Counted from the stretch's first letter, positions 55,465 through 60,056 are shown. The stretch: 64,000 nucleotides of DNA from Escherichia coli (GCF_051903065.1 NZ_CP178438.1); one strand, 5' to 3'. Program-made: numbers and translations. Notes: generated by a model not told the origin, from the letters alone.

Positions 55465-56676
55465 TTATTTTTTCTCCGGCCACGCAACTGAAGGGATACC
55501 ATTCAATTTAGCTTTAGCAAACAGATCCCCCTGAAACATCTCAATTCCTGCGGATTCAAGCCACATCCACTCTTCTGGTGTTGCCACGCCCATAGCACTG
55601 ACTTGAATTTCAAGTGATGTACAGCATTTTATGATCGCCTGAATAATTGCCTGCCGTGGTCCGCTTTTATGAACATTGGTAATCAATTCCTGACTGATTT
55701 TAATTCTGTCAGGCTGGAAGCGTGACAGGAGTAACAAACCAGCAAAACCTGCGCCAAAATGATCAATTGCTACACTGATACCGGCAGCCTTTAGCGATTT
55801 AACCGCTTCGGCAAACTCATCAAACCGAGATATGACTTCACTTTCAGTAAATTCAACGATGATTTGTTCAGGCACCAGACCATTGGCCTTTATTTCATCA
55901 AGTAAAAAAGAGACTGCGTCAGGCTCGTTAACCAGGGTCATAGGTAATAGATTGATAGATATCATTTTATCACCGAGCTCAAGTGCGTGTGCCATCGCGA
56001 ATACAAGCGCCTTACTTTTGAGATCCGCTGTGTAGATTTCCCCGTCTTTACGCTGCCCAACCGCTATAGCTGACGGGCTGTCTTCATTTTTTTGCACAAT
56101 GGCTTCAAAAGCGATTATCCGCCGCGATAAGGGATCAACAATAGGATGAAAGGCAAAGTGGTCGTTTATATTTGGTGAAAGGGTACAGGAATCAAGTTCT
56201 TTATCAGATCCGTCAGCGATAAAAAGCCAGGAGTCTTCAGCAGGAATCTCGAAATAGGTTGATTGTTCGGTTGCAAGGACAAAAGTACGAAAAAATTGTA
56301 GCGCTCTGTCATCATAAGTTAGCTGAAATTTTGATGTGCCTTTGTCGAATACGGCCTGTAAAACGTCATCTCGCTCGTGCAGGCGTAAATCAAATAATTC
56401 CATTCCCGCTTTGCCAAAACGGCGAGCAGGCGCGTAATCGCACAGCAGCTCAACAATATTATAGTGCCGTGGATCCTGGCATATAGCCCGATATATCATT
56501 TTAACCTGTTCTTCCGGACCTTCCAGAAGCTGGAAAAAATGAGAACCATTAAACAGTAAGATCCCTGTTACGTCAGACTGCATGTTCCTGCGATTTGCTA
56601 TCGAAACCATTTCTTCGATTTTTTTGACAGGTTCGTCGTCACGTATATGGCTACGATAAATAAGGGTGGTAAGCAT
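55465..56676 (-). CDS. bluF: Blue-light sensor BLUF-EAL protein BluF (YcgF) with degenerate EAL domain
   Basis: Start at ATG 56674-56676 (MLTTLIYRSHI...), 403 aa; BLUF domain then EAL-like domain with substituted catalytic motifs (DHFGAG for DDFGTG; AMGVAT for EGVE). Confidence 0.92.
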   Translation of the reverse strand: MLTTLIYRSHIRDDEPVKKIEEMVSIANRRNMQSDVTGILLFNGSHFFQLLEGPEEQVKMIYRAICQDPRHYNIVELLCDYAPARRFGKAGMELFDLRLHERDDVLQAVFDKGTSKFQLTYDDRALQFFRTFVLATEQSTYFEIPAEDSWLFIADGSDKELDSCTLSPNINDHFAFHPIVDPLSRRIIAFEAIVQKNEDSPSAIAVGQRKDGEIYTADLKSKALVFAMAHALELGDKMISINLLPMTLVNEPDAVSFLLDEIKANGLVPEQIIVEFTESEVISRFDEFAEAVKSLKAAGISVAIDHFGAGFAGLLLLSRFQPDRIKISQELITNVHKSGPRQAIIQAIIKCCTSLEIQVSAMGVATPEEWMWLESAGIEMFQGDLFAKAKLNGIPSVAWPEKK

Positions 56677-56989
56677 TAACTGTCCAGGGTAATGGGAGAG
56701 GCGAGAGTAAGACGGTAACAGACATATCTTCCGGTGTCTTTCTTTTAATACCAAAACATAACTGTTTCTTTACATTGATAAAAAATGGAAAAAGTTGAAC
56801 ACGAGTTGGCGAAAATTTTTGTATAGGTTGTCAGTTAAATGATGCAATATGTTTTATCATAACGTATTGTTTTATATGCATTAGCACTAATTGCAAAAAA
56901 TTAATTTATCATTCTGTACACATATTTCGTACAAGTTTGCTATTGTTACCTCACTTAACATTGATTAACATTTTTAACAGAGGCGTAGC
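56677..56989. promoter_or_regulatory. Divergent bluF / ycgZ promoter region (expected site of BluR operator; site not pinpointed)
   Basis: 313-bp AT-rich intergenic region between divergent genes; regulator assigned from established knowledge. Confidence 0.5.
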
Positions 56990-57226
56990 ATGCATCAAAA
57001 TTCAGTGACTTTAGATTCTGCGGGAGCAATCACTCGTTACTTTGCAAAAGCGAACTTGCCTACTCAGCAGGAAACTCTCGGGGAAATTGTGACTGAGATT
57101 TTGAAAGATGGACGTAATCTGAGTCGAAAGTCGCTTTGTGCCAAACTTCTTTGCCGACTGGAACAAGCGACAGGGGAAGAGGAACAGAAACATTATAATG
57201 CACTAATTGGGTTGCTTTTTGAATAA
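56990..57226 (+). CDS. ycgZ: Small regulatory protein YcgZ (connector to Rcs system)
   Basis: 78-aa ORF, paralogous in pattern to ymgA and ariR. Confidence 0.88.
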   Translation: MHQNSVTLDSAGAITRYFAKANLPTQQETLGEIVTEILKDGRNLSRKSLCAKLLCRLEQATGEEEQKHYNALIGLLFE

Positions 57227-57268
57227 TGCAACAGCCTGATTATTTAACAGGTTAGCTATGAAGTCGTT

Positions 57269-57541
57269 ATGAAGACATCTGATAATGAAAGTATAAAATA
57301 TGAAATTACTGGCCAGGCGGTGCTCCAGATACTGCGCATGAAGATAAATTTTTCGGTGCAGACTCTTATTAAGCAATTACTCGTAATGAAATCGGCTGAG
57401 GAAAATGCTTTCCGACGAGATTTAATTGACAGCATAATTCGTGATTTTAGCAACAGTGATACAGGAGGGCCAAACCGAAGAACAGCGATAGCTGACAATA
57501 AAAGTATGTTCAATGGTAAGAAAATAAACAGAATACATTAA
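57269..57541 (+). CDS. ymgA: Small regulatory protein YmgA
   Basis: 90-aa ORF, second gene of ycgZ operon. Confidence 0.88.
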   Translation: MKTSDNESIKYEITGQAVLQILRMKINFSVQTLIKQLLVMKSAEENAFRRDLIDSIIRDFSNSDTGGPNRRTAIADNKSMFNGKKINRIH

Positions 57542-57836: not shown

Positions 57837-57948
57837 CTTTTAATTATTAAGTATAAGTTTATAGAAAACTCATTCATCTTATTTTTGTCTGTCGCTTTAG
57901 ACTATACACAGCATAATTTTATTGGGTTAATATTTCTACGAGGCTGAC

Positions 57949-58197
57949 ATGAATAATTCAATCCCAGAGAGATTTATTTTTCAATGTGCTTTGTTTAAAA
58001 ATCTCGAGAGGGAGGTGTTCATGACGCATGGGTATGTTGATAGTCATATTATTGATCAGGCTTTACGCTTGCGTTTAAAAGATGAAACCAGTGTGATTCT
58101 TTCTGATCTCTATCTGCAAATCTTGCAGTACATTGAAATGCATAAGACTACACTAACGGATATCATTATTAATGACAGGGAATCCGTGCTCTCTTAG
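57949..58197 (+). CDS. ymgC: Small protein YmgC
   Basis: 82-aa ORF, last gene of ycgZ-ymgA-ariR-ymgC cluster. Confidence 0.85.
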   Translation: MNNSIPERFIFQCALFKNLEREVFMTHGYVDSHIIDQALRLRLKDETSVILSDLYLQILQYIEMHKTTLTDIIINDRESVLS

Positions 58198-58532
58198 AAC
58201 TTGAGTAAGGTTATAGAATAAACATCAGCTGTATCATCATGCTGGTGCAAAGTGAGCATTTCAGGCGTTATGCTTTCTTAATATATCCGCAATATCAGGG
58301 GGCAAACAGGAATGGAGAGCGCTCGTTTTCCATTCTTGACGCCTGATATCCCACCTAATTTGTTTAACTCTGCCTACATTGTGCTCAATAATTAATAGGT
58401 TAGATGAAGATGGAGAAAATTTTATCTTCGGCGTGGATATTTCTTATGCTCTCTACCATGCTCTCTGTAGACGCCAGCGCGAGCGAATGAACGTCATTTT
58501 CATGTATTAAACCCTTTGTTCGGGACAAGCGA

Positions 58533-60056
58533 ATGCGCAATACACTCATACCCATCCTCGTTGCGATATGCTTGTTTATAACCGGTGTCGCTATTTTGAA
58601 CATCCAGCTCTGGTATTCCGCAAAAGCAGAGTACCTGGCGGGAGCAAGATATGCCGCCAACAATATCAATCATATACTTGAAGAAGCGTCACAGGCGACT
58701 CAAACAGCGGTTAACATTGCCGGGAAGGAATGCGACCTCGAGGAGCAATATCAGCTTGGCACTGAAGCAGCTCTGAAACCTCACCTGCGCACAATCATCA
58801 TTCTCAAACAGGGAACGGTCTGGTGTACATCCTTACCGGGGAATCGGGTCCTGCTGTCTCGTATTCCTGTTTTCCCGGACAGTAATTTACTGTTGGCTCC
58901 GGCAATCGACACCGTTAATAGATTACCTATCCTGCTCTATCAGAGCCAATTTGCAGATACGCGCATTTTGGTTACGATAAGTGATCAGCATATTCGCGGG
59001 GCGCTTAATGTACCCTTGAAAGGGGTAAGGTATGTATTACGCGTGGCGGATGACATTATTGGACCTACGGGTGATGTGATGACGCTTAATGGACATTATC
59101 CCTATACCGAGAAGGTTCACTCCACAAAATATCATTTCACTATTATCTTTAACTCGCCGCCACTCTTTAGCTTCTACAGACTTATCGATAAAGGCTTTGG
59201 GATTTTGATCTTTATTCTGTTAATCGCCTGCGCCGCTGCCTTCCTGCTAGATAGGTATTTCAATAAAAGCGCAACGCCTGAAGAGATCCTGCGGCGGGCT
59301 ATAAATAATGGGGAGATCGTCCCTTTTTACCAACCAGTGGTGAATGGTCGGGAAGGGACATTGCGGGGAGTTGAGGTGTTAGCCCGCTGGAAACAACCTC
59401 ACGGTGGATATATTTCACCCGCGGCATTTATTCCACTTGCTGAAAAATCCGGATTAATCGTTCCGCTTACGCAAAGCCTGATGAATCAGGTTGCCAGACA
59501 GATGAACGCTATCGCGAGTAAATTGCCGGAAGGTTTTCATATTGGAATTAATTTTAGCGCCTCGCATATTATTTCGCCGACGTTTGTCGACGAGTGCTTA
59601 AATTACCGTGACAGTTTTACCCGCCGCGATTTAAACCTCGTTCTGGAAGTTACCGAGCGTGAGCCATTAAATGTTGATGAAAGTCTGGTTCAGCGGTTGA
59701 ACATTCTGCATGAAAATGGTTTTGTCATCGCGCTGGATGATTTCGGTACTGGCTACTCAGGGCTTTCTTATCTGCATGACCTGCATATTGATTATATCAA
59801 AATTGATCACAGTTTCGTTGGTCGCGTCAACGCAGACCCAGAATCAACCCGAATTCTGGATTGTGTATTGGATCTGGCGCGTAAACTTTCGATCAGTATC
59901 GTCGCTGAAGGTGTCGAAACGAAAGAACAACTTGATTATCTGAACCAAAATAATATCACATTTCAGCAGGGTTATTATTTCTATAAACCTGTTACATACA
60001 TCGACCTGGTCAAAATTATCCTTTCTAAACCGAAGGTGAAGGTTGTGGTTGAGTGA
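58533..60056 (+). CDS. pdeG: Membrane-anchored c-di-GMP phosphodiesterase PdeG (YcgG), EAL domain with intact motifs
   Basis: 507-aa ORF; N-terminal TM plus periplasmic sensor region, C-terminal EAL domain with EVLARW, DDFGTGYSGL, AEGVET. Confidence 0.92.
   Translation: MRNTLIPILVAICLFITGVAILNIQLWYSAKAEYLAGARYAANNINHILEEASQATQTAVNIAGKECDLEEQYQLGTEAALKPHLRTIIILKQGTVWCTSLPGNRVLLSRIPVFPDSNLLLAPAIDTVNRLPILLYQSQFADTRILVTISDQHIRGALNVPLKGVRYVLRVADDIIGPTGDVMTLNGHYPYTEKVHSTKYHFTIIFNSPPLFSFYRLIDKGFGILIFILLIACAAAFLLDRYFNKSATPEEILRRAINNGEIVPFYQPVVNGREGTLRGVEVLARWKQPHGGYISPAAFIPLAEKSGLIVPLTQSLMNQVARQMNAIASKLPEGFHIGINFSASHIISPTFVDECLNYRDSFTRRDLNLVLEVTEREPLNVDESLVQRLNILHENGFVIALDDFGTGYSGLSYLHDLHIDYIKIDHSFVGRVNADPESTRILDCVLDLARKLSISIVAEGVETKEQLDYLNQNNITFQQGYYFYKPVTYIDLVKIILSKPKVKVVVE

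Follow-up and report, generated by a model that had tools for sequence, protein, structure and literature searches.

BluF and PdeG, a degenerate and an intact EAL protein encoded side by side in Escherichia coli, are very probably independent neighbours

The genes bluF and pdeG of Escherichia coli each encode a protein with an EAL domain, the domain of cyclic di-GMP (c-di-GMP) phosphodiesterases, and lie close together on the chromosome. In the 64,000-nucleotide stretch analysed here (GCF_051903065.1, NZ_CP178438.1; hereafter the window, with positions counted from its first letter), positions 55465-60056 are bounded by the stop codons of bluF and pdeG. BluF and PdeG are very probably encoded by two E. 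coli genes, both already characterised, that are independent of each other and neighbours by chance: the EAL domain of BluF has substitutions at catalytic positions, that of PdeG keeps the full canonical set, and their proximity looks like an accident of gene order particular to E. coli, with no partnership behind it. The domain architecture, the status of the residues, the separate strands, the lack of conserved synteny and the separable presence of the genes in E. coli genomes come from this analysis. The anti-repressor action of BluF and its failure to bind c-di-GMP, as well as the in vivo phosphodiesterase activity and RpoS control of PdeG, come from the literature. We infer that BluF and PdeG have no direct link.

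Results

bluF (55465..56676, minus strand) encodes 403 aa from an ATG start and is annotated as such in RefSeq. Its product has Pfam matches to BLUF (PF04940, E=3e-24) and to EAL (E=1.7e-49). The BLUF match (aa 2-92; 56401..56673, minus strand), a flavin-binding photosensor domain, covers the full profile, and Tyr7, Gln49 and Met92 are identical to BlrP1 in alignment; judged by profile and pocket residues, BluF has a photoreceptor domain of the BLUF flavin-pocket type. The EAL domain (aa 173-388; 55513..56160, minus strand) is degenerate. EAIVQ replaces the EALxR signature (I193, Q195; 56092..56106), DHFGAG replaces DDFG(T/A)G, with H306 in place of the second Asp and FA instead of YS thereafter (55747..55764), and AMGVAT replaces AEGVET, with M362 and A365 in place of the two Glu (55579..55596), all three on the minus strand and read from the translation and from the alignment described below.

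The EAL domains of BluF and PdeG were aligned with MAFFT against six active or structurally characterised phosphodiesterases: BlrP1 (3GFX), VcEAL (6IH1) and PA3825-EAL (4Y9O), with sequences from HMMER alignments, and PdeL, PdeC and PdeH of E. coli K-12. The register of the alignment is right, since it reproduces the catalytic numbering of BlrP1 (E188/N239/E272/D302/D303/K323/E359/Q379) and of PdeL (E141/N200/E232/D262/D263/K283/E319/Q339). It likewise reproduces the numbering of the BluF-M2 variant (I193L+Q195R) in PMC3509220. BluF keeps E191, N242, E275, E278, D305, K326 and Q382. The substitutions are I193 for Leu, Q195 for Arg (R192 of BlrP1, R145 of PdeL), H306 for the second Asp (D303, D263), S328 for Asp (D325, D285), FA for YS in loop 6, M362 for the first Glu of EGVE (E359, E319) and A365 for the second (E362, E322). 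I193, Q195, H306, S328, M362 and A365 all occupy catalytic, metal-binding or c-di-GMP-contacting positions, and M362 replaces the Glu that serves as general base and metal ligand. BluF also has H177 where BlrP1 and 67 of 80 homologues have Gln. The residue set is thus not that of a catalytically competent EAL domain.

An earlier note on this DNA had read the BluF signatures as substituted and those of PdeG as kept. The motifs it quoted for both proteins lie where it placed them and translate as it claimed, and none of the BluF changes proved to fall outside the catalytic positions. Its reading of the two domains, with a role for BluF in protein interaction rather than in c-di-GMP hydrolysis, is right and agrees with published work (PMC3509220, PMC3484386, PMC6385356). 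Tschowri et al. 2012 (PMC3509220) found neither phosphodiesterase activity nor c-di-GMP binding for BluF; putting consensus residues back failed to restore either and weakened the antagonism of BluR. The same authors described E. coli BluF as the most degenerate variant and its EAL domain as a surface for protein interactions, with a residual affinity for MlrA. Spurbeck et al. 2012 (PMC3484386, Table 1) gave the residue classes of ycgF (bluF) as EAIQ / NQHS / TA / ENEEDKMQ and those of c1610/ycgG (pdeG) as EVLR / QRDD / TE / ENEEDKEQ. The observation on the BluF and PdeG motifs is therefore confirmed and already published, and the identification of the two EAL domains is far beyond chance (Pfam E=1.7e-49 and 2.3e-66).

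pdeG (ycgG; 58533..60056, plus strand; RefSeq annotation) encodes 507 aa with the layout of a CSS-domain phosphodiesterase: a first transmembrane segment (TM1), a periplasmic loop of about 200 aa with two Cys, a second transmembrane segment (TM2) and a C-terminal EAL domain. The periplasmic CSS domain (aa 31-217; 58623..59183, plus strand; PF12792 CSS-motif, E=1.4e-31) has a hydrophobic stretch on either side (about aa 3-28 and 216-243). In the alignment with PdeC, Cys67 and Cys98 correspond to its redox pair, Cys75 and Cys106; the signature Cys98-Thr99-Ser100 reads CTS, not CSS (58824-58832), with both cysteines of the pair kept. The EAL domain (aa 251-486; 59283..59990, plus strand; Pfam EAL, 2.3e-66) is canonical, with EVLARW at 59373-59390, DDFGTG at 59736-59753 and EGVE at 59907-59918 in the plus-strand translation. 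Every canonical residue, including the metal ligands, is present (E281, L283, R285, N340, E372, T374, E375, D402, D403, FGTGYS, K423, D425, E459, E462 and Q479), in column-for-column agreement with BlrP1, PA3825, PdeL, PdeC and PdeH, as expected of a competent EAL domain. Zlatkov & Uhlin 2019 (PMC6385356) reported that YcgG and YcgG2 turn rugose colonies of Vibrio cholerae luxO(c) smooth, which indicates phosphodiesterase activity in vivo, and the phenotype of CFT073 Δc1610 is complemented by the phosphodiesterase VC1086 (PMC3484386). PdeG is one of five CSS-domain phosphodiesterases (Herbst et al. 2018, PMC5897775). Control by a DsbA/DsbB-dependent disulfide and processing by DegP/DegQ were shown for PdeC and PdeB only; for PdeG, redox control and DegP/DegQ processing are expected by those authors and may hold by analogy.

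The two EAL domains align over 118 residues with 28% identity, and their best solved relatives differ: BluF matches BlrP1 at E=1.8e-98, PdeG matches PA3825 at E=1.8e-66 and BlrP1 at only 2.4e-15. The domains are old, distant paralogues from different EAL lineages. A recent tandem or local duplication of the two genes was considered and rejected, given the low identity over so short a length and the differing structural relatives.

The neighbourhood of bluF was compared across genera outside Escherichia by scanning GTDB with one genome for each species, which gave 80 bluF-like loci from Citrobacter, Klebsiella, Enterobacter, Pantoea, Erwinia and other Enterobacterales, the best match to BluF being from Citrobacter (76%). 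By tblastn with full PdeG and with the CSS domain, no gene for a CSS-EAL protein was found within 10 kb of bluF at any of the 80 loci. The PdeG matches obtained there are the EAL domain of the bluF homologue itself, plus one 69-aa fragment at the edge of locus L078. A bluF-pdeG neighbourhood is thus not conserved across species. Citrobacter possesses ymgC; downstream lie a gene for a LuxR-type regulator and an unrelated open reading frame of 527 aa, and no EAL gene was seen there. This result agrees with Tschowri et al. 2012 (PMC3509220), who placed ymgC, ycgG and ymgF outside the conserved bluR-bluF-ycgZ-ymgAB unit. The genes icd, ymgD, ymgG and minE were absent from the surroundings of bluF in the other genera, except for icd near three Erwinia loci; because this shared chromosomal context is missing, the blu unit sits at different places in different genera.

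A locus was counted as linked to bluR when BluR exceeded 50% identity and ycgZ was adjacent. This applied to 41 of the 80 loci, all of which have the bluR-bluF / ycgZ-ymgA-ariR unit and a non-canonical EAL domain (41/41), with His306/Val362 in 38. Where bluR is missing (39 loci), the eight canonical metal and catalytic residues are all present in 16. The window itself holds the anti-repressor module: its degenerate BLUF-EAL gene has a MerR gene of the BluR type on one side and the divergent ycgZ-ymgA-ariR operon on the other. In Pantoea and Erwinia, a distinct lineage of BLUF-EAL proteins of 385-390 aa was observed (loci L071, L072, L075-L083, L085 and L086; matches near 10001-11160). Its EAL domain is far more degenerate (Asn242 to Ser/Thr, Glu275 to Gly, Asp306 to Asn, Lys326 to Arg, Glu362 to Ala/Ser), and its genes lie near ycgZ/ariR-like genes with no BluR above 50% identity; some of these loci have an upstream MerR-like gene of 21% identity.

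Within E. coli, 5,426 complete genomes were searched, a gene being counted as full-length when at least 80% was covered. A match to a 5.5 kb query around bluF and pdeG, annotated with both genes and at 95-100% identity, was found in 5,092. bluF was full-length in 4,910 genomes and pdeG in 3,933 (any match: 4,945 and 5,040, respectively), from which it follows that at least 977 genomes have a full-length bluF and lack a full-length pdeG. The two genes are therefore not co-retained within E. coli. In approximately 1,100 genomes, pdeG appears to be reduced to nt 631-1524, the ycgG2 allele, a figure estimated from the 5,040 and 3,933 genomes and from sampled rows. This allele, already described (PMC6385356), keeps TM2 and the EAL domain and is called a pseudogene by PGAP. 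Strain LF82 (L006, 7001-7894) has the ycgG2 allele only, together with an intact bluF, bluR and small operon. In the genome collection, twelve matches to the bluF/pdeG region were on plasmid-typed records.

Comparison with known systems places both proteins among close relatives. K-12 BluF (YcgF, b1163) is the same gene at the same chromosomal position, with 403 aa and the same EAIVQ, DHFGAG and MGVA; the eight differences (T165A, N169T, V225A, A227T, D260N, G266A, V292I and V397I, window residue first) spare all tabulated catalytic positions and amount to strain-level polymorphism. BlrP1 of Klebsiella pneumoniae, a light-activated BLUF-EAL phosphodiesterase, is homologous to BluF over its full length (residues 1-401) and has the same architecture. 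BlrP1 is active and keeps R192, D303, D325, E359 and E362, whereas BluF, with Q195, H306, S328, M362 and A365, is an anti-repressor; genes of the BlrP1 type do not adjoin bluR (PMC3509220 and the 80-locus comparison). The orthologues linked to bluR in Citrobacter, Klebsiella, Enterobacter and other genera have the gene arrangement of E. coli, His306 and a residue other than Glu at 362, as E. coli BluF does. ELxR and the second Glu of EGVE are still present in them but lost from E. coli BluF (I193, Q195, A365), and position 362 is Met in E. coli rather than their Val. By these residues, E. coli BluF is the most degenerate of the group, as Tschowri et al. 2012 noted.

PdeG of the window differs from K-12 PdeG (YcgG, b1168) at 6 of 507 residues, none catalytic. 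Like PdeC, it has the order TM1-CSS-TM2-EAL, all catalytic residues and, at aligned positions, the pair of cysteines. The CTS motif sets PdeG apart from the CSS of the PdeC/PdeB type, and of the five proteins of this class PdeG is the least conserved in E. coli. YcgG2 (c1610), found in B2 and extraintestinal pathogenic E. coli (ExPEC) strains, has the same EAL domain and the same position next to ymgC and ymgF but lacks nt 1-630 (TM1 and most of the CSS domain), whereas the allele in the window is full-length. The solved structures closest to the EAL domain of PdeG are PA3825-EAL of Pseudomonas aeruginosa (4Y9O, 1.8e-66) and PdeL/YahA (4LJ3, 8e-60). Their metal and substrate ligands are all identical to those of PdeG, but the N-terminal regions differ, PdeL having a LuxR-type DNA-binding domain and the PA3825 structure being an isolated EAL domain.

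The gene order of the E. coli chromosome, icd-iraM-ycgX-bluR-bluF / ycgZ-ymgA-ariR-ymgC / pdeG-ymgF, is that of the window, and at the bluF-pdeG region it is the order of K-12 MG1655, with bluR, bluF, ycgZ, ymgA, ariR, ymgC, pdeG and ymgF annotated by RefSeq. bluF and pdeG are divergent on opposite strands, and their start codons are 1,856 bp apart with ycgZ-ymgA-ariR-ymgC in between. bluR (ycgE; 54530..55261, minus strand; RefSeq bluR) encodes a MerR-type protein (Pfam MerR_1, MlrA_helical, MlrA_C), the repressor of ycgZ-ymgABC that is antagonised by BluF (PMC3509220). The divergent control region of bluF and ycgZ, placed from the open reading frames and RefSeq, spans 56677..56989; the BluR operator at the ycgZ promoter and the promoters of this region were described in PMC3509220. 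A start of bluF at TTG 56754, giving the longest open reading frame, was rejected in favour of ATG 56676, the RefSeq start. The 5' end of bluF mRNA lies 30 nt upstream of the translational start used by Tschowri et al. 2012 (PMC3509220). The ycgZ-ymgA-ariR(ymgB)-ymgC operon (56990..58197, plus strand; RefSeq names) consists of open reading frames at 56990-57226, 57269-57541, 57570-57836 and 57949-58197; YcgZ and AriR match Pfam YmgB. Further out, icd is intact (51533-53209) and directly followed by iraM, the strain being without the e14 prophage, which in K-12 is inserted in icd. The ycgH autotransporter pseudogene (60857-64000) is split at 61427-62395 by IS903B (IS5-like), with a 322-aa transposase reading frame, and both ycgH halves are annotated as incomplete in RefSeq.

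Discussion

BluF is a blue-light sensor of the BLUF-EAL type, the EAL domain of which has lost the residues for the second metal, water activation and c-di-GMP contact and has become a protein-binding surface. In blue light and at low temperature, BluF binds the MerR-type repressor BluR and releases it from the ycgZ promoter; ycgZ-ymgA-ariR-ymgC is then switched on and acts through the Rcs system on biofilm matrix genes. For PdeG, a periplasmic Cys67-Cys98 disulfide would restrain activity, by analogy with PdeC and PdeB, and reduction or clipping by DegP/DegQ would free an active TM2+EAL fragment that hydrolyses c-di-GMP. The two genes do not appear to form one transcription unit or to share a regulator, given the opposite strands, the pdeG promoter assigned in published work and the differing σ classes. 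According to Sarenko 2017 (PMC5635695), BluF belongs to a vegetative/σ70 class that falls in stationary phase and PdeG to an RpoS-induced stationary-phase class.

Several observations nevertheless weigh against complete independence or against parts of the reading. The GTDB scan returned no locus from E. coli, Shigella, E. albertii or E. fergusonii, its sole Escherichia being one mis-named isolate; either such genomes lie outside the collection or the gene is missing. The literature searched yielded no in vitro data on c-di-GMP hydrolysis by PdeG, the activity of which is known from heterologous colony-morphology assays. Control of curli and biofilm matrix is the endpoint of both pathways. In addition, pdeG is co-directional with the BluF-controlled operon and starts 335 bp downstream of it, both units are reported to be RpoS-dependent (PMC3509220; PMC5635695), and a consensus scan of the ymgC-pdeG spacer (58198..58532, plus strand) found no canonical intrinsic terminator of the stem-plus-T-run kind. 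On these grounds some read-through from ymgC into pdeG is possible, and pdeG could be expressed in part from the BluR-repressed, RpoS-dependent ycgZ promoter. Blue light and cold would then, via BluF, raise an active phosphodiesterase, lower c-di-GMP and reinforce the shut-down of curli by YmgB and Rcs, the predicted outputs agreeing in direction (less matrix). Such transcriptional coupling is very unlikely. Northern blots detected a single four-gene mRNA, ycgZ-ymgA-ymgB-ymgC, with pdeG outside it (PMC3509220), and Shimada 2014 (PMC3946193) assigned to ycgG, by RNA polymerase binding, its own RpoD promoter in the spacer, TTGACG-19-TATTTT, with an H-NS site. In the window TTGACG is at 58336-58341, in the 3' arm of a predicted hairpin, with no TATTTT 19 nt downstream; it may be the -35 element of the published promoter. 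Promoter-like matches in the spacer were at chance level (11 found, 10.4 expected), and an Rfam search of it returned nothing at E<=0.1. The predicted fold of 58198-58400 is very stable (-60 kcal/mol, z=-3.55, 0/200 shuffles as good; a long hairpin of about 14 bp) and could stop transcription. Moreover, in none of the other genera examined does pdeG follow the operon, and pdeG/ycgG is unmentioned in the literature on bluR mutants that was searched.

A physical coupling, in which the EAL domain of BluF heterodimerises with that of PdeG or competes for partners in the MlrA/BluR-type network, so that light modulates local c-di-GMP hydrolysis, is very unlikely indeed. EAL domains commonly dimerise. 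The EAL domain of BluF is an interaction surface with some affinity for MlrA (PMC3509220), and PdeG is a promiscuous hub in two-hybrid assays that interacts with the DgcE/DgcM/PdeR module acting on MlrA, a paralogue of BluR (PMC5635695). According to its main text, the screen of Sarenko 2017 tested cyclases against EAL proteins and GGDEF domains against one another, with no EAL-by-EAL cross, and no direct test of a BluF-PdeG interaction was found in the literature. Opposed to such contact are the distance between the two domains, the opposite expression windows reported in PMC5635695, the lack of co-inheritance outside E. coli and the frequent truncation of pdeG beside an intact bluF. BluF is, furthermore, co-adapted to BluR, as seen in the weaker interaction when consensus residues are restored (PMC3509220). 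Read-through and direct contact remain improbable even when taken together. Under a related proposal, E. coli alone has added pdeG to the blue-light module, and read-through, or contact of BluF with PdeG or with MlrA/DgcM/PdeR partners, would let light and cold also tune local c-di-GMP degradation. This is likewise unlikely; if true, it would reconnect a catalytically dead BluF to c-di-GMP signalling through its neighbour. Chance neighbourhood of two independent genes is the reading preferred here. The suggestion in the earlier note that the juxtaposition hints at functional coupling is not supported, in view of the distance between the domains, the absence of pdeG from all 80 loci, the at least 977 genomes with bluF lacking full-length pdeG, the separate σ classes and the position of pdeG outside the conserved unit.

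Finally, BluF is a textbook case of an EAL enzyme that evolved into a protein-binding anti-repressor, and the residue comparison of ycgF and ycgG had already been tabulated. The present comparison extends a published rule to 80 species-level loci: where bluF is linked to bluR the EAL domain is always degenerate, and elsewhere the full active site is often kept. The pdeG neighbourhood is limited to E. coli among the loci compared and is not maintained even there, and for this reason gene proximity is a weak argument for coupling at the bluF-pdeG locus.

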